Source of the DNA: Dimargaris cristalligena
Taxonomy: Eukaryota
Assembly: GCA_003614675.1 (NCBI GenBank)
Contig: ML002313.1
Location: forward strand, 1-43,143
Length of the DNA stretch: 43,143 nt
Direction: 5' to 3'
A program made the position numbers and the translations under genes. Below the pieces are notes generated by a model. The model made no database searches and was not told the origin of the DNA. It was given only the letters and a program-made list of their open reading frames with translations. This document shows, piece after piece, positions 18,770-41,954 of this stretch; position 1 is the stretch's first letter, and each line of letters opens with the position of its first letter.

Positions 18770-20194
18770 ATGGTTGCCAGTCTCAGTCAGCAACAGCAGC
18801 AGGGCGACTTCGCTATTAAGCCCGAGAGCAAGACCGTCGCCCTCGATGCCTCCGAGTGGCCCCTGCTGCTCAAGGATTTCGACAAGCTGAATATCCGCTC
18901 CAACCACTACACCCCGATCCCCAATGGCTGCTCCCCGCTCCGTCGCGATCTGGCCACCTACGTCAAGTACGGTGTTATCAACCTGGACAAGCCCTCCAAC
19001 CCTTCGTCCCACGAAGTCGTCGCCTGGATCCGCCGCATTCTCAAGTGCGAGAAGACCGGCCACAGCGGTACCCTCGACCCCAAGGTGACCGGTTGTCTGA
19101 TCGTCTGTATCGACCGTGCCACCCGTCTGGTCAAGTCCCAGCAGGGCGCCGGTAAGGAGTACGTGGCCGTGCTCCGGCTGCACGATACCCTCGACTCCGA
19201 GAAAACTCTGTTGAACGCTATCCAGACCCTGTCCGGTGCCGTGTTCCAGCGCCCCCCGCTGATTTCCGCCGTCAAGCGTCAGCTGCGTATCCGTACCATC
19301 TACGAATCCAAGATGCTCGAGTTCGACAATGACCGTCACCTCGCCGTCTTCTGGGTCAAGTGCGAAGCCGGTACCTACATCCGGACCCTGTGCGTCCATT
19401 TGGGTCTGCTCGTCGGTGCGGGTGGTCACATGCAGGAACTCCGGCGGGTGCGCTCCGGAGCCACCTCCGAGAACGACGATATCGTCACCATGCACGATGT
19501 GCTGGACGCCCAGTGGACTTTCGAGAACACCAAGGACGAGTCGTACTTGCGTCGCGTGATCCGGCCCCTCGAGTCCCTCCTGGTCCACTACAAGCGTATC
19601 GTGGTCAAGGACAGCGCCGTCAACGCCATCTGCTACGGCGCCAAGATGATGATCCCCGGTCTGCTCCGTTTCTCGCCCGGTATCGAAGTCAACGACGAAG
19701 TCGTCCTCATTTCCACCAAGGGTGAGGCCATCGCTTTGGCTATTGCCCAGATGACCACCTCCGTCATGGCCACCTGCGACCACGGGGTTGTGGCCAAGAT
19801 CAAGCGGGTGATCATGGAGCGTGACACCTACCCCCGTCGCTGGGGTTTGGGCCCCCAGGCCTCCAAGAAGAAGCAGATGGTCAAGGACGGCAAGCTCGAT
19901 AAATACGGCAAGCCCAACGAAAACACCCCCGCTTCTTGGAACAAGGAGTACAAGGATTTCACCGCTGCGCCTGAGACCGAAGAGACCTCCCCTGCTGCGG
20001 CGATCCCCACTCCCTCCACCTCCGCCTCCAACCCTAAGCGCAAGGCCTTCGAGTCCGATTCCGAGAGCGAAGCCGCTTCCGTGGAGGCCACGCCATCCAA
20101 GAGCGAGGCCAAGGCCAAGAAGGAGAAGAAGGAAAAGAAGGACAAGAAAGAAAAGAAGGAGAAGAAGGAGAAGAAGAAGCAGAAGTCCGATTAA
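18770..20194 (+). CDS. CBF5: H/ACA snoRNP pseudouridine synthase Cbf5/dyskerin
   Basis: [19 protein letters not shown], catalytic [16 protein letters not shown] domain, [17 protein letters not shown], and KKE-repeat tail. Confidence 0.99.
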
Positions 20195-21265: not shown

Positions 21266-22023
21266 ATGTCGTCCAACAAAGCCCAGAAGATTATGATCCC
21301 GCCGATCAACATGATCTTTCGGCATCTCCAAAACAAAACAAAGGTTCAGATTTGGCTGTTCGAACAAGTAAATACCCGCATCGAGGGTCAGATTATTGTA
21401 AGTGCATCGACCACACTATATAGTACTAAAAAGCGTCTTCACTCCCCTCCGCCCTAAGTCCGCAAGACATGTCCATTACTTTTCTATCCTCAGAGTGCAA
21501 CTAAGCTTACATTGTTTCCCTTCCCAAACTGGTTGTTTGTAAAACGTGGCAATCGACCTACTATACGCATTCGCGGTGCTAACCTAGTTTATTACAATAT
21601 ACATTTCCTTAATTTCATCCATGTCGCGTTCCCTCCACCTATCTCCATCGACTTCTATGGAATAACGCACGCGCCTCCCATCATTTCGGCCATTCACCAA
21701 CTGTGTGACCAATAGGGTTTCGACGAGTTCATGAACCTTGTTGTCGATAATGCCGAAGAAGTCCACATGAAGAAAGCCACTCGCAAAACTCTAGGTAAGT
21801 GCAATGCTTCGCGCTAAATTTATTTGACTAGACTGGACATTCCCGTATCTACTACCCCGATAAACTAACTATTATTAATGAAAGGATTGGATACTCCCTT
21901 ATGCATCTATGGACATTGCTAACCTTCCGCTCTTGGTACACCTATGGTATCCTTCTATTCTCCCCGAATTTAGGCCGTATTCTTCTGAAGGGCGACAATG
22001 TTACACTAGTACAGGCCGCTTGA
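21266..22023 (+). CDS. SME1: Small nuclear ribonucleoprotein E (SmE); exons 21266-21397, 21716-21794, 21974-22023; 86 aa
   Basis: [22 protein letters not shown]...[31 protein letters not shown]...[14 protein letters not shown]. Donors are GTAAGT, acceptors TAG, with CTAAC branch-like sites in both introns. Confidence 0.97.
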
Positions 22024-23123
22024 TACCATTTCACTTTCTTTTATCCGGCCAGCTCGAGTCCGAAGATGTAATTTTGTGATTCAAAATAAATGACACGTTG
22101 ATCTGTATTTATGCTGCCCTAGAGTAGGCGCCTGTGGACTCCGGTGAAGGAATATTACCACCTTGATCCCTCTGTAGATTCTCCAAAGTGTAGCTGCCCA
22201 TAGTATAGACATAGTCTGCGCACCGGAATTTCCGAAAATCATATACCATATAAAAAAGAGTACATTGAATAGGAAGCCAAATGGGCTAACCTTGAAATGT
22301 AACAGTGATAACCTAGGAATGTCAAAAATCGGGTTAGCATAGTTTTGACTTCGGATACATGTAAATTTTCCGTATAGAGAAAAGGGCCGCATATGGGGCA
22401 ATCTATTCTAACTATTACCGATTGCGGGATCGCCTGCCTCGGTTAGACAGTGTTTTCGTCTACCAAATACCTTGAATCATTGCCTCTTATCCACATGGTT
22501 CATGGTACCCGCTCATCACACGCTGTCTGGTAATAACGACTTCGGCGCTGCCACCCTACCACACCCCACAACAGTACAGGCTCGCCTTATGGAGATATCT
22601 GCCGCTATTGGAGTACCCATCATATAGACTGATCCTTAACAGGTTGGCTCAGTTTCCGGCCTTGCAATGCCAATCTAGCGTCACTAACCACCAATGCGCA
22701 AGAGTTGCTAACATTTAGAATGAGGCACTTGGGAGTAGCTAGTACAAGCCTCAGAGGAGACGAACTGTTCAGAGTCAGCAGGACAATCCCTTGTCTCTAT
22801 CGATGAGAACACTCCGCCCAGCTCCCTCACCCCGACCGCCTCCACTAAGCAAGCAGCGAACTGTATCCATTTCGACCAAATGACAGAAAGATGAAGGGTA
22901 TATATAAATGTATTAATTTCTCATGTACTCCAAAGGTCCCTTTGTTTTAATAAAATACTCATTATAATCTTTGGACGTTTGAACTAACTACATTTATCTA
23001 GTTTGTCACTTATTTAACCCCCTTTGGCACCATGATTACTAGTCCCCACTTGGCATCACTTTACCAACCACATAGATGCTAGCCATGTAATTTTAAATAA
23101 TTCGCCCGAGTAAATGGGCGGGT

Positions 23124-23882
23124 TCATTTAGGGCAACCATAGGAAGAACCGCCGCATATCTTCCTGATGTGCCGAATTAATGAATGACGACCGGTGAATC
23201 TAATTTGGCAGTTGGGACATCTGATGGGCTGATGGACGTTATCGTAATGTTTTTGCAGGACCTGGGAATTGGTACAGAACCTATCGCACTTGGTACAGCG
23301 ATAGGACGTCGAAATTTTATGACTTGGGTCGTGGGGGGCATTATTACCATTGTCGTCGTCGTCGTTGGTACCAGCCGGTAGCCATTTTTTACAATTCCGG
23401 CAATAGTGTCTAACCGCGCTTCTGTTCGATCGGTTTGGGGGAGAGGGCTTGTCCTGAGAGCCAACTCCACTTCCACCTCCACTTGGTACAATACCACCGC
23501 CGGTCACGGTCCGCGCTTCGTTCTCGTTGCTGTATTTGCCGTGGTAATTACCATTGCCAATAATAGTACGATCAACTCCGTCCCAGGGATAACTTGGCCC
23601 ACTGGTTCTGCTACCGTCCCGCCATGCCAAAGTGGAGCCCGCCAAGGTATACACTCCATCCGTGCCGGTGATATCTGGGCGAGTGTGATGGGGGTACGGC
23701 GCCCTTCGAGTTCGGACTGGCGAGTCGCTAGGTGTATCAATATCATTCACAATGAAATCGAGCGATATGGCTTTGTCTTCTGTTGAAGACGCCGGGGTGA
23801 ATTCGAGAGCCGGCCTACCCATTAGCCCTGGTAAACAACCCAGCAGGGCGATTCCAATCACCCAATCTATTAATATATACAT
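23124..23882 (-). CDS. Signal-peptide-bearing zinc-finger protein, copy 1 (C-terminally truncated)
   Basis: Hydrophobic N-terminus MYILIDWVIGIALLGCLPGLMG-RP; KAISLDFIVN motif; fingers CTKC..HYDNVH and CPNC..HIRKIC. The stop falls inside a third finger (CPK*). Confidence 0.75.
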   Translation of the reverse strand: MYILIDWVIGIALLGCLPGLMGRPALEFTPASSTEDKAISLDFIVNDIDTPSDSPVRTRRAPYPHHTRPDITGTDGVYTLAGSTLAWRDGSRTSGPSYPWDGVDRTIIGNGNYHGKYSNENEARTVTGGGIVPSGGGSGVGSQDKPSPPNRSNRSAVRHYCRNCKKWLPAGTNDDDDNGNNAPHDPSHKISTSYRCTKCDRFCTNSQVLQKHYDNVHQPIRCPNCQIRFTGRHSLIRHIRKICGGSSYGCPK

Positions 23883-25800
23883 TGAAACCGGTAATTACGC
23901 AGAAGTGGACGTGGGGGGTGTGGTGGTAATAGCTATAGATATAGATATACTACCAAATGACACGCTGGGGGTAACAGTGTACCGGTAGGCTAAATGTGAA
24001 AATGGGTTGCGTAGCAGGTGGCTATAAACAATACTGCCCCTCACCGCTTTTAAAAAGTAATGTAGGTAAAAAGGGTAATCCTAAAGTAAAGATTAAAACC
24101 CCCAAAATAATGTGGCCGGTGCCAAATGGTTAGCAATATATGTGGACCGAGACCAGGAGATAAGGATGGACTCATTAGAAGCAACAGGCCATTTCGCGCC
24201 TACTCTAATGTTTTGGTTAGTACTGACTGTAATGGCCGTCCATTAACAAGAATCCCTTAGGTCTTAAGATTGAACGTGAGGGTTGTTGGGTTTATCGTTA
24301 TTACCTGGGGCGACAGATGTTGCCCGCCGTGTTATCCCCAGCGGCTACCAGTGTAACATAGCCGGGCATTAAGAGTCTCTCAGTAAACCTGCTGCTCCAT
24401 TATGGTTGTACCACGACGGTATCTGGAAGTAAAATGGGAGGCCCAAGGTTTGAACTGTCTCTAGTCAAGAAAGACAATGTAGTCGTTTAATCCGAACCAC
24501 GTGTGCCATTGAACCAAACTATAATTCGTATATTACCGGTACGGTAGTTCTTTGGTATTGTTGGTCACCAAATATAATCCCAACAGCCCTACTTGGGTGT
24601 ATAGCTTTGTTGTATCCCACACTATCTACTAACCCAATGCTGCTCAAGTATGCACAATCTAAAGACCCCCCCCCATCCGTATTCGCCGTTTCGTATTGGT
24701 ATTATAAGACATTCATTTATCCTACCCCGCCGATTACATTTCTCTGGCATTATCATGCCAAACCTGGGACATGGGGTATATTGACCATTTCATTTATCCT
24801 ACTCAATTTACCAACCATGAGTATTTAGCAATACTACTCGCAGATAAATCTACATTTTAATAATATTTAAAGTTACTTTAGCAAGTCCTTGCATTTACTC
24901 TTCGATTTTAAATTCCAACACTGAGAAGTAACGTGGAGGTCTGACTAGTCTTACCACTACACCCACCTAAGGTAAACAGACCTCTAATAGATTTTGGGAG
25001 ACTGACTGCAAAGTAGCCAACTGTAGAACCAAAATGCCAAGCACTCCGCACCCATCCAGGGGAAATGCACCAACTGGTAGGTATTGAATAGGCCACTTTC
25101 AATCAGCAGCTTTGAGAATTCAAGGAAGAGTGCGCTTCCTAGGTCACCAGGGCTTGGAAATAGGCTACAGTTAAAAAAGAGTACCAGGCTAAGCAGCCAA
25201 GCAAACAACTGGGGCGGCACAATAGCGAAGCACTCCGGGACAACGCGTCCCACATAAACTCGTCACCTTTCTAAGCCTTGGATCCTACCTTGCTACCAGC
25301 TATTCCCATACACCTCCCACCGAAGCATTGGCCTACAATTAAAATTCCATTAATTAGTGGGTTCTTGTATTTAACAATAGAATATAGCCAAGGTGTTTGG
25401 TACCGACATATTCTATTCTATAGAGAAGCCACCCCGGTTCCTTACTTTTAAAAATAATACAATTAGATGATTGGCATTATACAGTCTGTTAGTAACATTG
25501 CACAAAATGAAAAATCAACCTGCCCAACCCTATGTTTATTGCCATCAGTTCCTCATAATTATCCAAGTTGCGATCAAACCTTATTTTTGAATGCCGTTAA
25601 ATCCAACCTTGCCCATCACTTATTGAATCTTTATCTTTTCTAGTGAAATTCATAGACATTTATTTTGAGGATCTATATAAGGGCTAGGTTAATAAATAAA
25701 ACTCAATTGGACATAAAACCCTAATCGGTCGGGCTATTACATTTGGGAGAAATATCAGGAGAAAATGTACGAAAGCCAAGATTAGGTGGTCACCTAAGTA

Positions 25801-26877
25801 TTAAATAGACGAAGGCTGCGCTGCTTCTTGAAACACACACGAATACATAATGTGTTTTTCCCAGAAGCCGGTGCACTGGGCTTTTAATACCTCGATGGTA
25901 TCTTGAACAGACTCAATAACAGGAATGGCACGTAAATCTAGCCGATTTCTATTGGAACCCACCTCCTTTTCCAAGGATGTACATTGGTGTCCTTCGTCGG
26001 TGGTGAAAGTCCGCATGGTAATCGTTTTAGTGGAAAAATCCCATTCGTAACCCACTAGCAAATGTCTGAAAAGCTGGGCCTTGACCAGTTGTTGGAAAAT
26101 ATCGTTCAGACGAGTCTCCCATTTTCCGGCAACCATTCGGGTCTTCGGGGGTGACTTTTTGACGCTCTTGAAATAACTTTCGAGTTCTTGGTATCTCTGA
26201 CCCTCATAATCATCCGTGGATGGATCCACCAACTGGTTTTGGAAAAGTTCCGACAAGGTAGGGCATTTCGAAAAGAAATTGACGGGTTTCTCATTAGGAT
26301 TGACCTGAAGTTTAGAAAAAATTGCTTCGATCTCCGAAACTTGACTGGCCAAGAGCGAATAGGTTAAGCTCCCGGTTTCGCCGGGGTCCTTATCATTGAC
26401 GTTCTTTCGCATAAGCATTCGTTCAGGATAAGATCCCTTCTGTCCCTCGGGGTACACAATGGAATCTAGTTCAAGGAAATCCATCTCATCGTTGAAGGTG
26501 GCTTCGGAGACTTGGCCGGGGTGATACGGACTATGCGCGACTGTGTTCATGGGGTCACGCATGGGGTTAAGCGAATCCAATGTCTGGTCTGCACCATCGG
26601 GGAAATAGGATGACTCCCACGACATTTCGAGATTATCACCATCCCCTCCGCTACTCTGGTCATTAAATTCATCGTAATCCGAGGACATGTACTCGGTTTC
26701 TTGGCCGTTCTGGAGCGATAAAGGGTCGGTGATGGACCAGGAAAGCGGCTGACGATTAGGTAAAGTCGCCTTCAGAGTGTTTCCCAATTGCTCGCCAACT
26801 GGACTGGCGTCCACGAGGTAACTAATCCCCCCAAGGCATCCCATTCCAAACAAGACCATACGCGTATTCGAAGGCAT
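25801..26877 (-). CDS. Hypothetical secreted protein (358 aa from MPSNTR), no recognised family
   Basis: Intronless 1.08-kb ORF. Signal-like MPSNTRMVLFGMGCLGGISYLVDA-SP, acidic disordered middle, predicted helical C-terminal half; TATA-like TATATAA on the minus strand near 27070. Confidence 0.7.
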   Translation of the reverse strand: MPSNTRMVLFGMGCLGGISYLVDASPVGEQLGNTLKATLPNRQPLSWSITDPLSLQNGQETEYMSSDYDEFNDQSSGGDGDNLEMSWESSYFPDGADQTLDSLNPMRDPMNTVAHSPYHPGQVSEATFNDEMDFLELDSIVYPEGQKGSYPERMLMRKNVNDKDPGETGSLTYSLLASQVSEIEAIFSKLQVNPNEKPVNFFSKCPTLSELFQNQLVDPSTDDYEGQRYQELESYFKSVKKSPPKTRMVAGKWETRLNDIFQQLVKAQLFRHLLVGYEWDFSTKTITMRTFTTDEGHQCTSLEKEVGSNRNRLDLRAIPVIESVQDTIEVLKAQCTGFWEKHIMYSCVFQEAAQPSSI

Positions 26878-29027
26878 AGTGTTATTCAAAATAAAAACCA
26901 AATTTGGTGTTTTGCAGCTGGGTTATCGAAGATATGTAAGAATACAAGAGTAATTGTAAGTGAGCAAGCGAGGGCCAACGATAAAATACCTCCGGATTGA
27001 AAGGCGGGTAGAGATATTTAGGATTAGGTAGGATGTATTTTTCACAGGGAGACCTAAGCAGTGCTATTATATAGAAACCGTGGTTGCGGTAAGCATTGGT
27101 GGCAGCCCACTGCCCAACGAACTATGTGTAAAATTTGATGCAGTTATACAGAGTTTAAACTGAAATGGCCCGAGAAAATAGTGTACACCAATCAGCGCTG
27201 ACTCGCCGATATAAGGAAATCGTCCACCAGATAGCCGACTATGTCCTGTACGGAAGTCGCTGTAGTATCGGGCATCATGCCCTCCAACGACCCCTGGTGA
27301 ATATAAATTGATTGGGTAGAGTAAAAGGCTTCACAGAATAAGGGATGTACTCGCCGAGAACATATACCCTTTTTATCTATTGGGCCCTGTGGCTAAATGC
27401 GAAATCAAATCCAGCGTTCCCTATCCAAAAACAGTGCACAGCCCCCTTCCCCCTCCTTCCCCTTTTCGCCCCGTTCATTTCATCATTAGACTTGACCACT
27501 CCCCGTAGAATGTACGCCACCTGTTCAGCAATTCATTGGTAGTCAACGTAGACAATTCATGTACTGCCGTATGTTGGGCCCGAGTGGTAGAGCGGCGAAG
27601 CGTACGAGTAGTGGTACACCGTTTACGTAGTGCGGAATATTACTGGGCAAAGCAGTACTCAGCCAATCGAGATTGCTCAAAGAGCTATTTACAGAATAGC
27701 GGGAAGAGAGGGAGCGGAGGGAAGGGAGGAGAGGGGATAGTGAAAAAAAAATAGACCCTTCCTACCAAGCAACGTCCGGCGTACTTACGGTTCAAAACCA
27801 ACTAGTTAAACTACAGCCTCACTAGGAGAGGACCGTAGGGCACCGTCGATATAATTTTGATAAGACCAGGGGGGGATGATTCAAGAAATTCCTAGTGCAG
27901 TAGGAATTTTGCCGTTTATTTCTTCGGCTATGGACGCATTAAAATGGACAATGCTGTTCAAATCGGTACGCTTAAGGTATTAGCCAAGGCGGTTTTATAA
28001 TAGCGCGGGAAGTCGAAATACCCTGCCAATTGGCAAAATGGGCCTACAACGGGAAATTCCAAACGGCCCCAACAGACCAAAGAGGGATAGGAAAATGTCG
28101 AAAATGTGCTGCTTGAGGGGGGAGGGGATGTCCTTCCGTTTTACGACTATTATTTCAAATTTAGAGAGCAGATATTATACACCACTACTGCCGTGTATGC
28201 TCAAACTTAGGCTACTTCCTATTGTACATAACTTGTATTAGATATCCCTTACATTCAAAGCCCCTCCATGTATGCCTCTTGAGATATATATGCCTGCGCC
28301 CTATGCTGCTGTCATCCAACTGTTCCAAATGAGCTCGCTATCCCTCTGACACCTGGTTTCCGGGTCCTTGGGACAAAACTACTTCAGAATTAGCCAACTC
28401 ATTAGCAGTCCTGTTACATCCATTAAATCAAGTCAGCTCTGCAATGCATTTGAGCAAGATAGCCAAAGCCCACTGTTTATAAAGCATACTGTACTGTTAT
28501 TTTTTACACTGCTCTGCCATTAGCCAGGAGGTATCCTAAACATGGGCAAAATTCGGCCCAGCTGTATAATGTTTTAAATAGGGTGTATATGGGATAATAA
28601 GAGGGTGACTCATTTTAAATGAGTAGTTTATGTTTATCTAGCAAATAGTTGGTTTTACAGTCTAATTGAACCTCTCTCATCTTTAATCCCCTGTATAAGT
28701 TACAATTGGGCTCTAATAGTCCAGAATTAAAATCCATTAACCTGACAAACATTACTATTCTTGGCTATTGATGGTCAGTTAAGGCAACCCCAAATTATTC
28801 TGACAAAGGTTCTCACCTCCCACTTAAAACTTGTGGTCAACTATCATGAAGCTGGGGGTCTCCACACACTAAAATAGCATGCTAAACATCAAGTATGATA
28901 CATATGCTACCGTCTTAGTAAAACCACTAATGGGTTAGTTTTATTGTTTAAAATCAACCATTCCCTCTTATCTACTCATCAAAACCACTTGCACTGCAAT
29001 ACTAGGTGAATATCTGAACTTAATAAT

Positions 29028-30515
29028 TTAAATATCATCCATCTCAGGACATCTGTGCATTAGTCACTGACATCTAGAACTAAAAGTATGTGCACAGTAC
29101 TGGCATAGATCAACAATATTTGACTTTGTCACCCAGGTTAACCACTCTTAGTCCATCAAGAGTCCCAGGGATAGGTTTCTAATGGTAGGTGGGGCTTAGG
29201 CTTAGCCAAGTGGCTACTAGAATTAGGGAGGGATCAGTACTAACCAATAAAGAATGAGTGCAGGCTAATGCAAGGGACATGCAGTAGGAACACTTACTGG
29301 CTAATATAATAGGTAAGCATATAAGGAGTTTATTGAGGTAAACTATGGGGGTAAGAAATAAGCTAAGGAACTGAACCAGTCCTAGAGGGGCCTTGTTATT
29401 TATATGCAGGGACCACTCATAATGAGGGGTCCCTAAGGGAATGGAATGACTAAGGTAGAGGTGAGGGTCAGAGTCTCAACCAGTTGGGCTTGCTTTCAGA
29501 AGACTTTCACTGAGAGAGGAGGGTCATTGGATCAGCCAGTGGAGTATGGTGTGAGAAGCATTGGGACCCGGTTATAGTGGGTTATATAGTTGGGGGAGGG
29601 GTAATATGGCACTATAAGGCAATAGGATGGCGTAATCAGTGTTCCATATTTAGGAAGGATTAGGTAGGCTGACAGACTTGATTCCACATCCAAATTGGTG
29701 TACATGGTTATCTATCTTTCTTATGCTCTCCTTTCTGCAATCCAGATAATCATATGTGGGTGTAATACATGGTTTCAATTTGCGTGCTTTTAGATGGGCT
29801 GCTTGGGTGAATTGCTTGAGGCAGTTAGGGCAATTAGAGGGACCTCAGCACATCAACTTAGCATGTTTGCAAAGTGTGTGGTGACTGGCCAGTACACATT
29901 GGCACTTGGGACAACTGATTGGCTGATGCATGTAATTGTCATTTTCTTTAGGGACTGGGGATAGACATATTGAAAAAAATACTTGGGGCAGGGGATGGGC
30001 TTCTGACCTTTATGGCTCTGGAAGTAGGGGGTGCTGCCATTAATTCTGGAAATTACCTGTTCCTTGAACTTCTGGTAACAGTATTTAACCACCCTACCAC
30101 TGCTTAGCATTGGGGTAGCAGGGCTGTCTAATGTGGCTGTTTGACTTCCACCTGGCACATTACAGTTGACTGTGACCCATGATGCTTCATTATCATCATG
30201 GCTATCATCACTGTAGTTGCCATTGGTATCATCATCGACTTCATCCAAGCCATTATGTGACAAAGAGGAGTCCATGGCAGTATCCATTTTATCAGTGTCA
30301 GTGATATCCAGGCTATAATTGTGGGGAGATTGGGCCATGTTTGGTTTGACTGATGAGTCACTAGATGCAGCAGGGGCATTCACAATGAAATTAAGTGACA
30401 TGGGTTTGGCTTTTACTGAGGACACTAAGGTGGGTTCGGGAATGGGTCTACCTACTAACCCCTGAAAACTACCCAATATGGTGATTCCAACTGCCCAATA
30501 TATTGGCCTATACAT
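29028..30515 (-). pseudogene. Signal-peptide zinc-finger protein, copy 2: pseudogene (frameshift, two in-frame stops, solo-LTR insertion)
   Basis: Colinear with copy 3: MYRPIYWAVGITILGSFQGLVG-RP...KPMSLNFIVN. A frameshift near 29943 leads to HQPISCPKCQ...HAKLMC*GPSNCPNCLKQFTQAAHLK...FGCGIKS[LTR]NIVDLCQYCAHTFSSRCQ*LMHRCPEMDDI*. TGA stops are at 29847-29845 and 29066-29064. Confidence 0.88.
29127..29674 (-). mobile_element. Solo LTR of an LTR retrotransposon (548 bp)
   Basis: Termini TGTCA...TGACA; exact 5-bp target-site duplication GACTT at 29122-29126 and 29675-29679; TATAAATA (~29400) then AATAAA (~29330) on the minus strand. Removing it restores the host reading frame. Confidence 0.9.
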
Positions 30516-31729
30516 CAAAGCTGTTGATTGTAAAGAAGCGAATGTGGGGAGGGGTATGGTGGTAATATAAAAATACCAATTGGTTAGTTGGGTGCAGAAA
30601 ATATACCATAAAGTTTACAGAGCTGGTAGGTGGGAGAAGATCACAGATATTAACCTCAATAACATTGAAAATGGCTTGTGGGTAAGTGGTGAAAATGTTA
30701 AAGTAAAAATAAATGACTTTGGGGTAATGCAACTTTATAGGGTAGCTGTATGGCTATAAAAATGAACTGTATCCAGGAAAATAGGACCAGCTCATAACCA
30801 GCAACATACCATTGTGTGTCTATTTTCATGTTTTGCTTAGTACATTTTCGAATAGTTACCCATCAATAAGTGTATCTTTGCAATGATGCTTAGATATGGG
30901 GATAATTGGGCTCTCTATCTACAGTTAGTGGACCAAAGGTATACTTTTGTGTTATCTATGGCGACTTCCCATACAACACAGCTGCATATCAAATGGTTCT
31001 AAGTGGCCTAGAATCTCAACCATGGTCACGCTACAAGGGCATTGAGTGAGGGCTTTGATGATACAGCCTTTAGACTGCTGATAAATGTGAGAATGAAAAC
31101 ACGAACAATGAAATCGAACTACTAATGCTATTTGTTGAATGGTGTTAATAGTATCCAATCAATGTTTAGACCTCCAATAGTTTGTCCTTGAGTATAGCCC
31201 TAGCAAGCCCCCTGTTCATGCCATTTGTACTAATAGTCAATGCATTTCCCATTTTCTGCTATCCCAGTATGGCTCAAGTATACATAATGTGAACTCTCCC
31301 CCTTCTCTCCACCCCCCCTTTGTATGGCAATGTATTATATTGGTAATACCCCACCCATTGTGACCCCTGCAAGGCATTACAAAATATATTATTTTCTGTT
31401 TTTTTGTTTTTTTCATAAAGCACCCACTTTCCATGCAGAGACTTGACTAACATGCCAAAGGGTGGTTCCATTAAATCAAAATGTCACTAGTTTTAATATG
31501 TAATATTTACCTCTCATCTAGTGGGTTTTCCACTCTACAGCCTGGTTGAACCTCCCTCATACTCAATCCCCTATATAGGCTACACATGGGCTCTAGTGCC
31601 CTAGAGTGGAACTAATTTAACCTAACAAGTATTACAGTTCTTTGCCACTGGGTATTTTTAAGGTGACATTAAATTACTCAGACAAGGTATCTCTGCCTCC
31701 CACTCAAAACTTACAGCTAACCACTTCGA

Positions 31730-32977
31730 GTTTGGAATACCAGATGGCACTCCACCTTCGACATGTGAGGCTTGGAGAGCTGCAAAACAGCTTTGGCAAC
31801 ATTCTTAGGCTGCTTCATAGCCACCATTAAGGATTCCAAGTTGATGGGTTTGGGGATGATTGATGATACATATTGGTTAGTTTCGGTTGTTCTGGAACTT
31901 GTCGTGGACACTGTTTTGAATTGTAGAGAATGAGGAAATATAATAGCCAAAGTATTGAAAAACACTAGCGATAATGATAGTGATTGATTGAAAGCAGTGA
32001 TAGTGTACTACCTGGGAGGTCCGGCCTATTGCCAGTGGCCTTTGGGTTTCATGAGGAGGCAGGAGCCTCCTTATCAGCATGGCCTGAAGTCACGGTGGCC
32101 AGCTCCCTGGTGGCAGAAGACAGGAGGTTTATGGAGTTGGATGAGACAGGGGCAGAGTTGGGCATTGTCATGTTGGGGGCACAGAGGGGTGGGTGATTAG
32201 TAAACCAGATGGGGGTTAGGGGGGATAAATGAGGAGTATTGAAGTTTATTGAGAAATAATAGCACAATGGAATTGGTAATTAATAATAAATAAAAAAGTC
32301 ACTGTCAAGTTCAAGGAATATTAGAAATAAGTTTGAAAATTCAGAGTGGGTAATGATTCTCCTCAAACAAGCAGGAATTTGCTGGTTACTTATGTAACCA
32401 TCCCATGGGCCTTAGGGGCTGCTGGATACAAGGATAGGGACATAGAGAAAAAAGTCAAGAATGGAATGAGATAGAATGACAGGGAATCCATCAAAAAATA
32501 GGCCAGACTTTTAGGTGCAAGGAAGAATGGCAGGCTTTTTAATGCAAACCATGAGTATAAAGAAATGAATAATATTTTGTTGGTTTTTTGTGGGTAAATG
32601 ATGGGAATGGTACCACCATTGCATACCATGGCATATTCCACCCTCTGACAGTGAGGACTGACTGTCCATAGTCCGGGGACAAGTGCCAATCTCTGGATGG
32701 CACTACAATAGCATTGAAAATATGAGCTTCAATGAGTGGAAGGCTGCTAAGCTCCCTTGGTGATGATTCAAATGCCCTTTATATGCATAATTAGATACTG
32801 TAGCAATGTCAATTTCAACACAACAGGTGCTACAAATGGAGTGGAAGTAAAGCTATGATAAACGATTTCACTCGAGTTAAATCAAAGATAAAGGTAAAGT
32901 AAAAATAGAACTGACAAATGTGCCATGGGCAGGGTGTAATATCAACTGTTAGCAATCAACCATAGCATGCCGGACAG
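31730..32977. mobile_element. Possible degenerate ~1.25-kb insertion (absent from the paralogous unit)
   Basis: Alignment with 28830-28870 breaks at ~31725 and resumes at ~32985. The flanks are CACTTCGA (31722-31729) and CACTTCAA (32978-32985), a possible 8-bp TSD with one CG>CA change. No clear TIR or transposase. Confidence 0.4.
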
Positions 32978-33163
32978 CACTTCAATTCCGGATTTCTCCA
33001 AGCACTACTACAGTGAGCCAAATATCAAGATTTGTTTCTATGCCATAGTCTAAGTAAAGCCATTAATAGGTTGGTTTTATTATTTAAAATCACTTATTGC
33101 TTTCGAGTTACTCATCAAAAATGCCTACACTGCCATACTAATTAGATCTCTGAACTAAATATT

Positions 33164-34120
33164 TTAAATATTGTCCATCTTAGGACAAATGTGCGTGGGA
33201 ATCTGGCATTTAGAATTGAAGGTCTGTGTACAGTGTTGGCATGGTTCGATAGTACCCGATTTGTTATTACGTCCGAGTAGGTGGATTCGGAGGTGTGAAG
33301 CGGATGCTTTCTCCTTGCCACAACCCACACAATCATGCGTGGGTGTACTGCATGGTCTCGTGCGATGGGCTTGTAAATGCCTCGCCAGAGTGAATGGTTT
33401 GGAGCAGTCGGGGCATTTAAGGGAACCCCCGCATTCCCTCTTTGCGTGGCGGTAAAATGACCGGTTCCCGGTGAGTCTAATCTGACACTTGGGGCAACTA
33501 ACGACCCGATGGACGTAGTCATTATGTCTTTGCAGGGCCTGGGGACGGACATAGACCACTGGGCACTTGGCACACGGATGGGGTTTCAGAACTAAATGAC
33601 TTGGGTTGTGGGCGGCATCGTCGTCGGTACTAACGAATAGCCATTTCTTACTAGTCCAGCAATAGCATTTAGCCATGCTTCGGTTGGATTGGTTTGAGCT
33701 GGAGGGCTTGTCCAGGGATTCAGCTTCACCATCACTTGGTACAGCATCGTTGACCATAGTCCTCGCTTCGCCATCGCCGTCGCAATAGTCGCCACTGTAG
33801 CTACCGCCATCAGTATTGCCGTCGGCCTCATTCCCGGCATCACTTGACCCGGAGGCTGCGCTGCCGTCCCTCCCTGATAAAGAAGTATCCGTTTCGACTG
33901 TACCAGTGATATCTTGGCCAGTGATGTGACTATATGGAATCCATCTTGTTATGACTGACGAGCTGCGAGGTGCACGATAATTATTCACAATAAAATTGAG
34001 CGACATGGGTTTAGATCTTTTCATGGGCATCGGGACGGACACGCGGCCAGCCCTGGCCACAAGCCCCTGTAAACACCCCAGCAGGGCGATTCCAACCGCC
34101 CAATAGGTTGATATATACAT
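33164..34120 (-). CDS. Signal-peptide-bearing multi-zinc-finger protein, copy 3 (intact, 318 aa)
   Basis: MYISTYWAVGIALLGCLQGLVA-R; KPMSLNFIVN; fingers CAKC..HNDYVH, CPKC..HAKREC, CPDC..HRTRPC, CVGC..HLRIH and CQHC..HIC. Confidence 0.82.
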   Translation of the reverse strand: MYISTYWAVGIALLGCLQGLVARAGRVSVPMPMKRSKPMSLNFIVNNYRAPRSSSVITRWIPYSHITGQDITGTVETDTSLSGRDGSAASGSSDAGNEADGNTDGGSYSGDYCDGDGEARTMVNDAVPSDGEAESLDKPSSSNQSNRSMAKCYCWTSKKWLFVSTDDDAAHNPSHLVLKPHPCAKCPVVYVRPQALQRHNDYVHRVVSCPKCQIRLTGNRSFYRHAKRECGGSLKCPDCSKPFTLARHLQAHRTRPCSTPTHDCVGCGKEKASASHLRIHLLGRNNKSGTIEPCQHCTQTFNSKCQIPTHICPKMDNI

Positions 34121-35856
34121 CGAAACCGGTGATTGCGAAGCAATGAATATGGGTGGAGGGGGCGTGATACCAATGGAGATACTGCCGATCGATATATTTA
34201 ATTCAATAATGTTTTGTGGGAGAAAACAGCGAGTATCAGTCCCAATAACGTTGAAATTAACTTGCAGATAAGTAGAGGAAATGATAAAGCAAGAATAAAA
34301 GAACTTGAAAGTACATCGCTTAGCGGGGCCACTGTATAACTATATACAGGCACTGTATCGTGAAAGATACGACCGACTCACAAGCAACAACAGACCATTT
34401 CGCGCTTATTCTCCTTTTTACGCTCAGTAGTTTCTAGGATGGCTGACCAACAGAACAAGCCGGTCTTTGCAATGGTACTTAATTTTGGGGTTAATTGGGC
34501 TGTATATTTGCAGGTAAAAGGGGACACAGGTATCCCCATCGCTGGGTTATCCACAGCAGCTTCCCATGTAACACAACTACGCATCGAGTGGCTCCAAATA
34601 GGCCTGTAGCTCAATTGTGGTCACATCACAGGGCTTTTTCAAAGGGATTGCGATGGTACAGGCTCTAAACTACCAATATGCACGATAGGCAACAGACAGT
34701 GAGTTCGAGCCAGCAATACTTTCGTATCAATGTATGATGATGAGTACCCCCAATTAATATGCCAGACGTTCAAATAGGATGTATAACGAATAGTCTGTTG
34801 GATAAGGCAATATAAACACTACCGGCTAAAAATGAATCATTCTCCTATTTTGTCCTTCGATAGTTCGCCCTTGAATCCAGCCCTAGCAAGCCCCCTATAT
34901 TTTGCTAACCTGGTGTGGCTCAAGTAGTTACAATTCGACCCCCCCCCTCTACTCTATCTCTCCTTGGTATGACTACTGAATTACATCGCTAACAGTCTTT
35001 TTATCTTTTTGTATTTTTCTCTTGCCTCGTAGGTGGGTTAATGCTAAAAAAGCAATACTCATGTGGCATGGTTTGGTTCAAAAGGGATCTCCATTAACCG
35101 ATTGGGTAAGCTGTTGCACAACCCCCAATATAATTAAGCAAATGAGAGAGGTTCAACCGGGCTGTATAACAAAAAATCCATTGGATGAAGCAAATAATAC
35201 CGGTTAAAAATAAATCTCCCATATATTATCCCATACATTGATCATTTAAATCATGCAACTGGGCCGAATTTCACCCAAATGCTTAGATATGGGGAAGAAG
35301 TACATTACGGGGGGTTATCAATGAAGGTACGCACTTTAAAGCCATTTGAATTGATAATAATCATGTATTTGCCCAAATAGTTCGAAGGAATTGGGGATTT
35401 CATTTCAGCTAAAGGTCTCAACACCACAGGTCCAGTAAGTGAAAGGTGGCTGACTGTAACGATACATACGCACGTACATTGAAATAAAAATGACGGCTGA
35501 ATGGTTGATACATCTTTTTTGCTCATTTCATTGTTATTCACGGAGGCCAATATACTTTTTAATATTGTACAATACGATAGCCATGTGCTGGTAAGTCGTT
35601 AAAAATATTAGTATTGAATGGATGATGATAATTCATGGAGAGACAGAAAGAAAATAATGGAATGGGTGCGCGTATGGGGTACACATTTAATAAAAGTATT
35701 ATCTTATTGGAATAACAGGTTGTTTGGTTGTGGAGAAATTACTAAGAAATAAAGATGGAGGGGTAGGGTTGGTCGGCCCTTTTCGATTTCCCCTTATTGA
35801 TCATATTCACCACCCTTCCTACTCACCAATTCCCCACTAAATTCGGCCCATCTGTA

Positions 35857-38800
35857 TTACAAATTTGGGCTAGAGTCAGCCGAGGGGGAAGAACCGCCTT
35901 GATGGTTATCATGAGTAGGTCGAATAGCCCGCCGGTGAAGATGGTGACGTAAAGCGAAGGGATCCAAATCGTAGTCGGTGCGAGGCTCACTTTGCAGACT
36001 AGCGTTATCGAGCTGGGCGTCCGGATCCGACGGGGAATGGCGATGGTGATGATAATTATGATGAGGTGGTGGTAAGTCCTCCTTTCCTTCTTGCGGACTT
36101 CCTCCGCTGCCCCCGTGGCCGTTGTTGTCATGGCTACTACTGTCAACGGGGAAGTAGCAGGAATGCAGATTACTAAAATAGGTGGATGGGTGGTGTCCGG
36201 CACTACCACCACCACCATTATTATTATTATTATTATTATTCCTATGACCTCCTCCTCCTCCAGCTGCAGTCGGATCAGTGTCTGCCCTATGGATGTAAGG
36301 GACAGCTCCTAGGCCAGCGGTCAAAATGGTCGAGAAGGCGTCATCCGTGGAGGAATAATAGTTGGTCTCCCTAACCTTAGGCGAAGTATGGGCCGAAATA
36401 GGTGACGCGGTCTCCCAATAGGTGGCGGCACCCGGACCACCACCACTTTCATGTGGGTGACCACTACCATAAGCCAATGTTTCTCTTCCTTCTGCCGCAA
36501 GCGGGTAGAAAATGGTGGGTAACGAGATCGTCGAGGCCGCCATCATGATAGTGTCATGATGATGATGATGATGATGGGAACTAGCGGCGGAGGGAATCAT
36601 ATTAGGGATGGCCGAAGTAGTAGCCGCTCGCTTAGGAGCCAAAGGAGTGGGTGACGGACCACCACCACCCATGGAATCCGTGGACGGGCGCGATCGATGC
36701 CGAAGAAACCGGCGATTACTTTTCGCGGAATTCCGTCGGCTCAGCCATCCCCCTCCTATACTGCCACCGGCATCCGACTCGTAGTTGCCGGGGCCATCCG
36801 TTTCTTCACCATCCGTGGTCTCTTCACCAGTACCGCCAGCACCAGTAGCACCGCCGCTGCCGTGCCGAGCGTTCTTTTTCTTATTCCGCTGGGAAGAACG
36901 CCGGCGCCGCAGCCGGTCTTTCAAATACGTGACTGGATCCAACGGCAGGGCCGCGCGCACCAACTGATCGAATTCGCCCTTACCCGTCGGTAGCCACAGT
37001 TCCGGCAGTTTACCCACGATACAGGGGTGCTGGTAGGACCGGATACCGGAATCGAGGATCCCGTGGACCAATTCCATGGGGGATTCGTTATAGTCGGTAT
37101 ATTTGTCCGGTAACAAATCGTACTGGTCCTGGTCGTAGTTTTGCATATTGAGCAAATACCGCCGGGAGTACGGGTGGTTCGGGGGGAAAAATTCGAGACC
37201 GGCGGTTCGACGTCGGAGATCCAGGCTCTTATTATTATTAGCACCGGACGTCTGATCACCACCACCTCCTCCCATGCCCGATCCATCAATATGCAAGTTG
37301 AGGTAGGAAGCCCTTTCGCAGAATGAGTTGCGTGCGGACGAAGGGGCCGGTGACGTGGGCAACAAGGTAGTCGAGCCCATGGGTGTAATAGGTGAATTCA
37401 AGTTCGACATTCCAGCCCCTCCTCCTCCACCGTAATAGGGACGAAAGTCCGAATCCAAGGGGGGTAAGACCAAGTGGGGGTCGGACACCGTGGACGGATC
37501 CCGGGCGTAGTCGGGCACAGGGATAATGACGTCGGGGTCCAGGAATCGAATGGAGGTGGACGGCATCGTGGTCCCCGATAGATAACGGAGACGACTACGG
37601 TACCGGGAGGCCTGGGACCGACGTACGGAGGGTTTGTTGTGGAACAGCTGGTTCAAGAAATGTAACGGGTATTGCGACTGGGTCGAGGGGTTCCGGTGGT
37701 GCTGGGCCGGGGAGGGGGTGGTACCATCAATACCGTCACCGTAGCTATTCCTGCCCCCCGCCGCGGGCAAACTCGCCGCTGACATGCCCCAGCGTCTAAA
37801 GCCCAGGTGCGAGTGGACGTTGCTATTCCGTGGTTCTGGACCACCATTACCGTCCGTGGAGTTCATAAACCGACGACCCAAATTTTGATCAGAGGCGGGG
37901 TGGCGTAAGGAGAGACGGTCATCTCCCCCGCCTTTACCGTAACCCAGGCGGTGGCGGAAACTACGTTTACGTGACCCGGGCATGCTTTTGGAGCGCATAA
38001 GTAACATTTGCCGGAACGTATGGGGGGAAGGTGACGTGGCCGACGGCACGAGGTTGGGCGATAATTCCGTATCAAATGGCCCGTCGTCGTCGGCACCGTC
38101 CGCATTAACCGCCAGGTCGGCCCTATTTTTCGATGTGAGGTGGTGGTCATCGGGTGAGCCCGAGCCAGCCACTGAACGCAGTGACCGAATCATATGGGTG
38201 TTGATGTGCAGTTTCTCACGTAGGGATGTCCGGTGCTTAGCCCGGGTTTCGGCGGAATTCCGCCGACCTAGGGGAATATCCCCCCAGACCGGATCGGCGT
38301 CAATACTCGTCGAATGACGGTGGTGGAAGGGGCGGCGGCGCTGCTTCTCTGGCTCATGGCTCGCCGCCTCCTTCTCCTCTACCCCCCCGTCGACCTCCTA
38401 AAGTAAAGGACTCCACTGACTGGTTCGGTAAGTTTAAAAACGACGGAGGCTCACCACCGGACGCGTCTGCTAAGCCTGAGGTATGATGATCAACCCCCCC
38501 ACCACCCATCACCATTTCCGGAGGTGGAAACTCACTACTCATACTCGGGCGGGCATTCAGATTAGTCGTAAACTCGTAGGGTTTGCCTTCCTCCTCGGCC
38601 ACCACCAACGATTCGAGCCATTTTACCCGTTCCAAATCGGTCATGTTCAAAAAATACGATGGTAGGGCCTGGGAGAAGTGGTCCACGATCTTGTACCACA
38701 TGCTAATGAGCAGCATTTTGTAGCCGTACTTGTGGTGGTCTTCGTACCCGAAATCGAACTGGGTGGGGCGCTGGTGTTCGTCTTCAAACTGGGGTAAGGG

Positions 38801-41800
38801 CGGGTGAGACGGTGGAATAGCCGATGCTGGGACGTTGTCGTCGTCGTCGTCATCATCGGGGTGGGGGGCAATTCGGGGTGACGACTGGGCGGTGGACGGG
38901 CTGGTATCATTGGGGTGGGTGATATCCTCCGGATGGTCGTTGCCATTGTTGTGGTTCGTTAGGGTTGACCGGATGGTAGGGCGAGGAGGGGGAGGGCTGT
39001 TGGTAGTTACCGCGGCAATTTCATCCGTCCAAGCTGATTCCAAATCCGAGGCCGGGGCCGCTGCAGGAGCACCACTCTCATCACCACCACCACCGTTCGG
39101 ACGATGCACCCCAAAGAATTTCGAAACGGGGGTCGAATGCGTACGGTAGACGTTCTTCAGGCCGTCCAATAGGGATGCGCTGATCGAGGAGCGTTCCCGA
39201 GGAGCGGTAGAGGTAGTAGAATCAAAGACCGACGATTCGGTGGTTTTCACGCCATCGGGGGGGTGGCTAGGGGATCTTTGGAGGGGCTGGAGATAATCCT
39301 GAGCTCCCCCCTTTTTTTCAGCCGATAAGTGATCGACGGGGGGTTGTTTGCCTTCCGTGTAGGTATTATCTTCCGACGGGTCACTATTACTACTATTATC
39401 CCTGGGGGGGACAACCACCCCCGCCGGAGCAGGACCATCACCAAAATCGCCTCCTTTGGGTAAGAGGGGGTCGTGGTCACTACTACCATTACTACCCCTA
39501 CGGCCGTTTGGATAAGACGAGCCGCTGGTTCGGGACTGGTGGTGATGATGATGATGATGAGGATGAGCAGTAGCCGCGGCCTGGGCGGCCAGGTGCTTGG
39601 CCTTCAGCCGGCCCAGTTCTTCGCGACGACGCTGATGGAGCCGCAACAGGTACAAGGGTACACAATCACCGTACACGGTGAGAATCTTGTTGATGTAGTG
39701 GAAGAAGAAGGAGTTCATGGCAACGGTGGGAACGGTCAAAATGGCCACGACCCACGAATCCTTCAGTGAGAAGAGACCGAACATGAGCAGGTGGTAAATG
39801 TACATACACACAACCAGTCGACGGACCACATAGGGCCACACGCGGCCCGACGATTCGTAGTATTTAAAGTAGACGTAGAGGAACAGGTATTTGTTGAACA
39901 GGAAGCCCAGGAGGAAGTACAGGATGCCGAACACCAAAATGAGGGGAGAGATGTTGGAGTACGTCAAGGTGATGACGAATACCAGCATGGGGACGGGGTA
40001 CCGTGCGCCCCAGGCGACGTAGATGGGCGCCACGACTTCGGAGAAATCCCGCGGCGTGGTACACAAGTAGCGTCGGAACGCGGTCCAGATCATGGGGAAC
40101 ACCTGGAGCAATTTAAAAGGCAGATAGCCGATACCCAACATGATGATGTAGTTGATGAAGAACGGGGCGACTTGGGGTAAGGAAGAGGCCAGTTTTTTGG
40201 TGACCTGGGTGGGATCATCAAAGATGTCGAAGAGGGAGTTCCACAGTGTCGACGACAAAGTGAACACCAGCAAGACATTGAATATTTGGAAAAAGAACAC
40301 CCGCGAGAGCACAAAAATATCCATCGTGGCCCGGACCCGTAACCCTTTGAATTCGGCCAACTTCTGGATGATGGCGGGTAATAAATTAAAGTAGGAAATC
40401 ATCACCACCGACGGCAGCGTGTAGGAGAACAGGGACTGCATGACCGAATTCCATTCGGCGAGATCCTTCACGAACGACAAATGTTGGCCCAGGGACTCGA
40501 GGGACAGGAACGAGGAGAGAAAAGCCACGGGTACGCCCCAGAAAAAAGTGAGGAAGACCATGGCAATGAATACCAGGATAGTCCGGGTGACCCGACTCCG
40601 TTTCTTGGTCGTTAAGTTATTCCAGTACACGTTACAGGGTTCGGGAGCTAGTCGGGTGATACAGGCGAACGGTTTCGCGTGGGTTAGGGTCTGCGAGGCA
40701 ATATGGGCACTGGTGGAGTGCTCGAACGTCACAAAGCCCACGGAGGAATTCTGGTTGGTGATGCCTGATTCTACATTCATGGCCACTGTGGGGGGTGGGC
40801 CGCTGGAGGCGGCCTGGCTCCGAATGAGCCGTAGGGACCGCACCAGTCGGTCGAATTCGAGGAACCGTTCCTTGTGATAATCGATACCGTCCACCCGGGG
40901 GCCCCGCCGGAACCACCGGCCGGTTGGTAAACGCACGGTAGGGCGGGGGTTGTATTTCGGATTGCGGGCCGCCCGCCGCTGGTACTCGGGTTTCATCCAC
41001 TGGGACGTGAGTACCCGTTCTTCAAAAGCGGCCTCGGGCGTGGGCGTCATGAGAAGCTGGGTTAGACGGGCGCGGTCGTAGTCGGGGGCCTTGCAGGGAT
41101 TGCCAATGAGTTTGGACACCATGGTTTCGAGTTTACGCAGGTGTTCGGCGCGGGACTTGACCAAGGCCGGCAGATCGGACGACTGACCAACAATGTAAAC
41201 CTCCTCCACTTTGCCGATATCCAATTCCTGGAAGAATTTCCGGAGCATGGCGGGGTTCTGGAGGTAGCCAGGGATATTGGTGACCATCACCGACCGGGAT
41301 TCGACCGACCCGGCATTGCGTAAGAGGTAGTGCCACCGCAATGCCAAAAAATGGTAGGAGTAGCGCAGCAAATAGTAGTACACGACCAGGGAGAAGACGT
41401 ACACGAAAATCAGGTGCACCACGAGGTAGGGCGAGGCATCGGGCATGGAGTTCATTGACAAAAAAGCCTCGGAGTCATCGTTACTCCCCACCACGTTGAT
41501 GGGAATCAGAATGCACAGCCCGGGGACGGCCAAGACGCAGAAGATGGCGATGCTCAATTTGAAGAAGCGCAGAAACATGACGGCGTCGAGTCCGACGGTC
41601 TGCAGCATGAACATTTCGGAGGTGTTGATGACTGGCAATAGCCAGCCTAAAAACCGCATGGGCAGTTTGAGGGGGGGCCACCCGCCGGAGCCGGGACCGG
41701 GGGGCGTAGACGGTGGGCCAGCGGAAACGCAGCAAACAAAAAAGAACAAAGAGGACGACGCCGAGAAAAGCGGCCACACCCAGCTGGGTGGTGAGGGACG

Positions 41801-41954
41801 GGGTGTGGTTGGCCACATTAGTGGGCGAGCCGGGAATCCCGGCGGCCCCGCTGCCGTTGTTGAGACCGATAATGTCACCGACATCGATGTCACGGGGATC
41901 TACCACCACCAGAGCCGCCGCCCTGACTGCGCCGGAGTAGTTGATGCTGGGCAT
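35857..41954 (-). CDS. OSCA/TMEM63 (CSC1/RSN1/PHM7-like) calcium-permeable stress-gated channel; about 2031 aa if two +1 frameshifts (41671-41677, 38382-38388) are corrected
   Basis: First TM and FCLLRFRWPTVYAPR in ORF 41954; GLDAVMFLRFFK, SRSVMVTNIP, GFVTFE, APEPCNVYWNNL, FFFQIFNVLLV, YSNISPLILVFG and YESSGRVWP in ORF 41893-38354; the C-terminal fungal motif YTDYNESPM...YQHPCIVGKLPELWLP in ORF 38193-35857. Confidence 0.9.

Follow-up and report, generated by a model that had tools for sequence, protein, structure and literature searches.

Secreted C2H2 zinc finger proteins that act in the nucleus of a host are already known from Magnaporthe oryzae, the rice blast pathogen, in which they are named MoHTR1, MoHTR2 and MoHTR3. 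In the published description, MoHTR3 has an N-terminal signal peptide, a nuclear localization signal (NLS) and, at its C terminus, a C2H2 finger. This species-specific protein is expressed during the biotrophic stage and makes its way to the nucleus of the host; MoHTR1 and MoHTR2 are its relatives. The same source reports that, among the fungi compared by its authors, secreted zinc finger candidates of this kind occurred only in M. oryzae, and that experiments validated the way in which the three proteins act: they are secreted, enter the nucleus of the host and reprogram transcription. Here we report on a family of three open reading frames (ORFs) in a 43,143-nucleotide stretch of the genome of Dimargaris cristalligena (GenBank assembly GCA_003614675.1, contig ML002313.1, positions 1 to 43,143 of the forward strand), referred to below as the window. 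An earlier reading of the letters alone, here called the original prediction, had proposed that these ORFs encode zinc finger proteins that are exported and act inside another cell, and it had guessed at a biotrophic or mycoparasitic fungus as their source. This guess was right, as the literature lists D. cristalligena, which is reported to grow on a supplemented axenic medium as well, as one of several biotrophic mycoparasites and describes the Dimargaritales as mycoparasites with genomes of 20 to 30 Mb. Its premise that a signal peptide joined to C2H2 fingers has no precedent was mistaken, given the MoHTR proteins.

The Dimargaris family shares the design of MoHTR1 to MoHTR3. Both groups have an N-terminal signal peptide (putative in the case of Dimargaris), a middle part free of domains and C-terminal C2H2 fingers, both are lineage specific, and both belong to a fungus that grows biotrophically. 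They differ in that the MoHTR proteins come from the Ascomycota and have a plant as host, whereas the Dimargaris family belongs to the Zoopagomycota, with a fungal host; in addition, the intact Dimargaris protein is longer (318 amino acids), contains an array of five fingers, some of them C2HC variants, and carries a conserved motif after its leader. No sequence relationship between the two groups was found, the MoHTR sequences not having been compared directly.

The RxLR and Crinkler (LxLFLAK) effectors of oomycetes are built from a signal, a motif within about 20 to 40 residues, a variable or disordered stretch and a C-terminal functional domain, and their families, in which the N terminus is the better conserved part, are clustered and fast evolving and include pseudogenes. 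By analogy, the family described here resembles them in its layout of putative signal, motif, linker and domain and in its best-conserved N terminus, and differs in that its motif, (M/I)SL(N/D)FIVN, is unrelated, in that it belongs to a fungus and in that it is tiny, with 5 known loci. The TAL effectors of Xanthomonas are pathogen-made DNA-binding activators delivered to the host nucleus; the concept is alike, and fold, delivery (by type III secretion) and kingdom differ, so that the comparison is one of analogy only.

Three paralogs with a hydrophobic leader, a conserved motif and zinc fingers

The three ORFs, which we refer to as copies 1, 2 and 3 in the order of their coordinates, all lie on the minus strand at the positions originally given for them (Table 1). 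They are paralogous, with protein identities of 37 to 46% when aligned over their length, and their parts follow one another in a common order: an uncharged hydrophobic leader of 22 residues, the (M/I)SL(N/D)FIVN motif (residues 39 to 46), a DITxT element (residues 70 to 74), a linker and fingers of the C2H2 or C2HC type. On the leader side, M1, Y2, W7, G10, I11, L14, G15, G19, L20 and R23 are invariant in the 3 copies, as are S40, L41, F43, I44, V45 and N46 of the motif, whose S, L, F and I are unchanged in all five aligned family members. The predicted set of three paralogs with a leader of about 22 residues and a conserved motif was thereby confirmed. The stretch rich in Gly, Ser, Asp and Glu between residues 76 and 160 has a net charge of -9 in copy 3 and -8 in copy 2. 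In each of the 3 copies, the first ATG of the stop-to-stop frame is the ATG of the leader.

The family is clustered, tandemly duplicated and partly decayed, as had been proposed. Not only the genes were duplicated: about 0.6 to 0.9 kb before each ATG can be aligned among the copies, with an identity of 53 to 62% over positions -600 to -1. Judged from its sequence, the family is a candidate for an exported regulator or effector that would act in host nuclei. Among the readings considered, this is the one that we place first, and we do so tentatively. The proposal of exported effectors in the original prediction thus finds partial support: the host biology of the fungus, the conservation of the leader, the restriction to one species, the clustering, the fast evolution and the decay speak for it, and the n-region of the leader, the Leu at position -3, the lack of a full public gene model and the presence of a single intact copy speak against it.

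Table 1. Positions of the zinc finger copies, their parts and other features within the window
Feature	Position	Strand	Description
Copy 3	33164..34120	minus	Sole intact member; 318 amino acids; leader, motif, acidic linker predicted to be disordered, five fingers
Copy 3 leader, residues 1-22	34055..34120	minus	Core W7-L17; proposed cleavage between A22 and invariant R23
Copy 3 MSLNFIVN, residues 39-46	33983..34006	minus	Counterparts: copy 2, 30378-30401; copy 1, 23745-23768 (ISLDFIVN)
Copy 3 linker, residues 76-160	33641..33895	minus	D/E/G/S-rich, net charge -9, predicted disordered
Copy 3 finger array	33185..33574	minus	Five finger units
Copy 3 finger 1	33509-33574	minus	C2H2, H-x5-H
Copy 3 finger 2	33431-33496	minus	C2HC, H-x4-C
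Copy 3 finger 3	33350-33415	minus	C2HC, H-x4-C
Copy 3 finger 4	33281-33331	minus	Short C2H2
Copy 3 finger 5	33185-33241	minus	C2HC, H-x-C
Copy 1	23124..23882	minus	252 amino acids; leader 23817-23882, ISLDFIVN, two complete fingers (23232-23297 and 23154-23219)
Copy 1 finger 3 remnant	23064..23123	minus	Past first stop, broken by second stop; tblastn match of copy 3 extends to 23085
Copy 2	29028..30515	minus	Pseudogene; leader/motif/linker ORF 29853-30515 (220 amino acids)
Copy 2 finger remnants	29665-29949	minus	Contain in-frame stop
Copy 2 unmatched stretch	29127-29664	minus	About 540 bp without counterpart in copy 3 (tblastn/alignment to copy 3)
Copy 2 C-terminal remnant	29031-29126	minus	Contains stop
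Upstream block duplicated with gene	Copy 3, 34121..34992; copy 2, 30516-31346; copy 1, 23883-24477	minus	Probably promoter and 5' untranslated region
Orphan ORF358	25801..26877	minus	358 amino acids, between copies 1 and 2; signal-peptide-like N terminus
Dispersed repeat	7-60, 28536-28832, 31474-31712, 34732-34855, 35106-35286	both	Four of five copies within 20.3-35.8 kb
P0002 "intron," 30 nt	33930-33959		Removed in public model of copy 3
P0002 "intron," 22 nt	about 33631-33652		Removed in public model of copy 3
P0001 "intron," about 487 nt	about 23817-24303		Removed in public model of copy 1
Leaderless finger ORF A	11437-11910	minus	Rejected as a relative
Leaderless finger ORF B	13243-13875	minus	Rejected as a relative
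Cbf5	18770-20191	plus	
ORF846	35857-38397	minus	846-codon frame with low-complexity runs
CSC1/TMEM63-like frame	38354-41899		Presumed membrane protein, read from the sequence by eye

Selection on the frames and decay of copies 1 and 2

From stop to stop, the frames are 391, 256 and 253 codons long. When positions 22000 to 35500 were shuffled 300 times, the longest frame had a mean of 134 and a maximum of 225 codons, and since all three frames exceed every one of these, real or recently real genes are supported. The synonymous divergence (dS) between copies 1 and 3 is 0.55 and is larger for the pairs involving copy 2. When neutral mutation was simulated at 0.275 substitutions per site in 5,000 trials, the frame stayed open in a proportion of 0.0002 for copy 3 and 0.0046 for copy 1. 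The zinc-ligand columns, taken as those of fingers 1 and 2 plus the first Cys of finger 3, are identical between copies 1 and 3 at all nine positions, compared to 18 identities among the 49 remaining columns (Fisher P = 0.0004). The open frame and the conserved ligands together indicate that, once the copies had arisen, selection acted on both the frame and the metal sites. The leader aligns without gaps among the three copies, next to gap-rich DNA just upstream, and this, along with the open frames and the zinc ligands, argues for real or recently real genes. Evolutionary constraint on the family nevertheless appears to be weak, with overall ratios of nonsynonymous to synonymous divergence (dN/dS) of 0.39 to 0.74 across copy pairs.

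Only copy 3 is whole. In copy 1, a stop takes the place of the second Cys of finger 3, and the same frame then goes on with a remnant of this finger and a further stop. Copy 2, a pseudogene, has lost one Cys of finger 1, shifts its frame near 29943-29949 and contains in-frame stops, one of them between the finger 2 and finger 3 remnants. The three paralogs had been described as intronless and as carrying two to five fingers each, a description that applies to copy 3, which is intact and has five complete fingers, and to the finger count of copy 1, which has two and is cut by stops in the third; it does not apply to copy 2, in which no finger is complete.

The leader resembles a signal peptide

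Residues 7 to 22 are without charge in all 3 copies, and the substitutions within this run remain hydrophobic or small. The maximum 8-residue hydropathy of the leader is 2.16 to 2.73, and its hydrophobic core of about 11 to 16 residues includes three conserved Gly residues; a hydropathy scan detected no second hydrophobic segment in any copy. The size of the leader is more in keeping with a signal peptide than with a membrane span. Its dN/dS values of 0.23 to 0.47 are the lowest of any segment, with significance reached only for the pair of copies 2 and 3 (P = 0.012). At the cleavage site proposed by manual criteria, residue -1 is Gly in two copies and Ala in copy 3.

An internal start at the Met of MSLNFIVN, named in the original prediction as one way in which its reading could be wrong, does not work as a general rule. 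In copy 1, the motif is ISLDFIVN and no Met occurs beyond residue 21, so translation of its fingers requires M1, M21 or an upstream exon.

The finger array

Copy 3 exceeds the Pfam gathering scores of both PF00096 (zf-C2H2; 35.9 bits versus 25.2) and PF13894 (31.4 versus 27). Copy 1 reaches 20.4 bits for zf-C2H2, which is under the cut-off, and the ORF of copy 2 has no Pfam zinc finger match, so that one of the three copies passes the C2H2 threshold. The ligand pattern C-x2-C...H...H/C recurs in five units in copy 3, three of which end in Cys, and in two units in copy 1. An AlphaFold2 model of copy 3, built on the five-member alignment, had a mean predicted local distance difference test score (pLDDT) of 41.8, with 252 of 318 residues below 50. 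Residues 181 to 230 stand out from it with a pLDDT of 80 to 86 and a strand-strand-helix succession that occurs twice; fingers 1 and 2 are thus confidently predicted to fold as two beta-beta-alpha units, whereas fingers 3 to 5 remain below 50 and residues 21 to 180 score 24 to 43 over the stretch, which predicts disorder. Among the neighbors shown by a protein language-model search, all 10 clusters with a Pfam assignment were C2H2, at a recognition score under the bar set by the tool.

The closest structural comparison is with Krueppel-type transcription factors. In a PDB sequence search, the array of copy 3 was in register with solved poly-C2H2 DNA-binding chains, namely Aart (2i13_A, E = 3.5e-11) and ZNF568 (E = 9e-10), the match comprising fingers 1 to 4 with a repeat of about 28 residues. 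The predicted fold is likewise shared, as is an acidic region ahead of the array, which is also seen in activators. In contrast to these factors, copy 3 has Cys as the last ligand of fingers 2 and 3, has no TGEKP linkers and begins with a hydrophobic leader, and the profile search described below found no ortholog of the family outside one species.

Relatives and public gene models

A profile search of the kind suggested in the original prediction gives an estimate of the size of the family. A HMMER profile of the N-terminal 186 positions, run against 1.84 billion representative proteins, gave four hits with E values up to 0.001, and all of them are from D. cristalligena. As judged from these protein collections, on which the estimate of family size rests, the family is found only in this species and has five known loci. 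Two of the four hits are the public models of copy 1 (P0001) and copy 3 (P0002). P0003 (149 amino acids, on a 17-kb contig) retains part of a leader in its interior and has the motif in duplicate, and P0004 (62 amino acids, on a 5-kb contig) starts at the motif Met; neither has fingers. A word-based homolog search with the whole of copy 3 or with its residues 180 to 318 gave no hit, and with the five-member N-terminal alignment it returned only P0002 and P0003; this type of search misses relatives with few common 5-mers, and P0001 was among those missed. Each family cluster in the protein collections has a single member that comes from one gene-model set (RKP accessions). For the second set (KAJ accession), Cbf5 was present and no family member appeared in the collections searched.

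Two further minus-strand ORFs in the window (A and B in Table 1) end in an atypical finger pair, with C2H2 followed by C2HC, lack a hydrophobic leader and score under the Pfam cut-offs. They were considered as leaderless relatives and rejected, as their similarity to the family is generic (BLASTP E values of 0.007 and 0.034 in single comparisons).

The public models depart from the ORFs described here. P0001 joins a first exon at 24304-24369 (minus strand) to position 23816 and thereby removes the leader. P0002 begins at the leader ATG and leaves out two GT..AG "introns" of 30 and 22 nt; the loss of the latter shifts the frame, so that the product ends at 158 amino acids without fingers. Both removals in P0002 cut sequence that is collinear with copy 1. 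To us, the "introns" of the public models look like ab initio artifacts, and if so, they would mislead a secretome or domain census of this genome.

A possible route to the host nucleus and competing explanations

The history that we propose starts with the tandem duplication of a block of at least 2 kb, made up of the gene and about 1 kb of upstream DNA, which would have been followed by birth-and-death turnover. The ancestral product, for which copy 3 still codes in full, would have had a cleavable Sec signal, a conserved module extending from the motif to DITxT, a disordered acidic Gly/Ser linker and a five-finger Krueppel-like array. It is conceivable that the pre-protein enters the endoplasmic reticulum (ER), that the leader is cut off after residue 22, before the invariant Arg23, and that the mature protein is released where parasite and host meet and goes on into the nucleus of the host, a mucoralean fungus, where its fingers may bind nucleic acid and its acidic region may alter transcription. 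We infer translation from M1, cleavage, secretion, uptake and nuclear action, as well as any role of the motif; the proposed export follows, by analogy, the logic shown for MoHTR1 to MoHTR3.

Several of our observations weigh against export, and they are best considered together with the explanations that they favor. Only slightly less likely than export, in our view, is a young orphan family of once functional genes that is drifting to extinction and no longer has a role, with copy 3 as the last frame not yet hit and the leader as a relic without present use. Of the three copies in the window, two are broken, and the members from other contigs, P0003 and P0004, are fragments of 149 and 62 amino acids that lack fingers. 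The dN/dS of copies 1 and 3, 0.74, does not fall significantly short of 1 (P = 0.07). Codon bias is absent: the G+C content at third codon positions (GC3) of the zinc finger copies is 0.46 to 0.53, which is close to the intergenic level, compared to 0.69 to 0.82 in the Cbf5, Sec63-like and CSC1-like ORFs and 0.585 in the low-complexity ORF846. At 58 to 67%, the identity of the coding sequences is little above that of the DNA upstream of them, and the single-member clusters from the RKP set, with no counterpart appearing in the KAJ set, point in the same direction. Extinction does not sit easily with copy 3 itself, which keeps 318 open codons and the ligands of all five fingers, given that a frame of this kind survives neutral simulation in 0.0002 to 0.05 of the trials, depending on the time since constraint ended, nor with the ligand columns that were kept 9 out of 9; a recent loss of function in copy 3 would be compatible with the sequence.

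We think it improbable that the protein works in the parasite itself, with the leader as an uncleaved anchor or as a helix that targets the ER or a membrane and with the fingers in the cytosol or nucleus of the parasite, for example as a membrane-tethered regulator released on cue. This explanation draws on the leader of copy 3, in which the 15 residues after the core have a net charge of +5 and those before it a charge of 0; according to the positive-inside rule, such a charge balance favors an uncleaved anchor with the N terminus out and the C terminus in. The pattern is not conserved across the copies, as the net charge after minus that before the core is -1 + 1 in copy 1, 2 - 1 in copy 2 and 5 - 0 in copy 3. 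The n-region is without Lys or Arg in copy 1 (MYILID) and copy 3 (MYISTY), with only copy 2 having R3, and in copy 1 it carries Asp6. Many eukaryotic signal peptides have no positive n-region, so its absence weakens the signal peptide reading and does not exclude it. At the proposed cleavage site, residue -3 is Leu in all three copies, which likewise counts toward an anchor. The hydropathy over 19 residues is 2.12 in copy 1 and thus above the usual transmembrane threshold of 1.6, whereas it is 1.59 in copy 3 and 1.25 in copy 2, and the short core with its three conserved Gly residues does not favor an anchor. Zinc fingers normally function in a reducing compartment, and in an exported protein, the Cys-rich fingers and an N-x-S sequon in finger 2 (N219) would face the ER lumen. 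Membrane-tethered factors, for their part, mostly have their anchor C-terminal to the DNA-binding domain.

A further point against export is that no public gene model carries the leader and the fingers together. Just as improbable is the explanation to which this leads, in which the leader lies outside the protein, as an intron or 5' untranslated region, and another first exon (as in P0001) or a downstream start gives ordinary nuclear zinc finger products: the P0001 intron has a GT donor, an AG acceptor within the Arg23 codon and a CTAAT 8 to 9 nt upstream, the AG of that codon is present in all three copies and the leader ATG has a T at position -3 in each, a weak context, but the GT is missing at the aligned place in copy 3 and weak in copy 2, the CTAAT is specific to copy 1, the gap-free leader keeps its hydrophobic character along with the lowest dN/dS, the public model of copy 3 itself starts at the leader ATG, and the public models may lack RNA support. 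This last point follows from the genome paper of the species, in the main text of which the word "transcriptome" does not occur, and neither do "secreted," "secretome" and "effector."

Export of a host-nuclear regulator therewith remains our first, tentative choice. Its boldest form, which we regard as a long shot, would be that a transcription factor mimic passes from one fungus to another: copy 3, and possibly also copy 1 with its two fingers, would be a complete activator, made up of the acidic region and the five-finger DNA-binding array, that a haustorial mycoparasite exports into the nucleus of its mucoralean host, the invariant SLxFIV just after the signal would serve as an uptake or sorting motif in the manner of RxLR or LFLAK, and the family would have arisen independently of MoHTR as the first host-nuclear effector family described in the Zoopagomycota and in any mycoparasite. 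The effectors of early-diverging mycoparasites are essentially undescribed, and searches of the literature on Dimargaris listed no paper on leader-bearing zinc finger proteins of this kind. If copy 3 is exported, it offers a directly testable case of a parasite that rewires the transcription of another fungus with its own zinc finger activator, and a second, independent origin of the combination of signal peptide and C2H2 fingers known from rice blast. If it is not, the locus still illustrates neatly how members of an orphan family are born and die, and its public models contradict the evidence from the paralogs.

Genomic context

The three copies and one orphan ORF span about 15 kb of a gene-poor stretch, in which the intergenic G+C content is 0.40 to 0.44, compared to 0.55 to 0.60 in the flanking conserved-gene ORFs. 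The original prediction had placed the family next to transposable element remnants. The only support for this comes from a short repeat that is dispersed over the contig in five copies, in both orientations and mostly around the cluster (Table 1), and that has a conserved core of about 55 nt. A Pfam search of 10 flanking island ORFs revealed no transposon protein family, and no Rfam families or tRNAs were found. On these grounds, a transposon origin was rejected.

The N terminus of the orphan ORF358 has R6, a 16-residue uncharged run from residue 7 and V-D-A before S-P. No Pfam family was found in this ORF, and a language-model search gave no usable neighbor. It is present letter for letter in Atlas, where its model is very poor (pLDDT of 0.34). 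Its GC3 falls within the range of the zinc finger copies (0.46 to 0.53), in contrast to that of Cbf5 (0.82) and the Sec63-like ORF (0.70). On the other side of the cluster, ORF846 contains runs of poly-His, poly-Asn and poly-Gly and is located directly upstream of a large frame that we take to encode a CSC1/TMEM63-like membrane protein.

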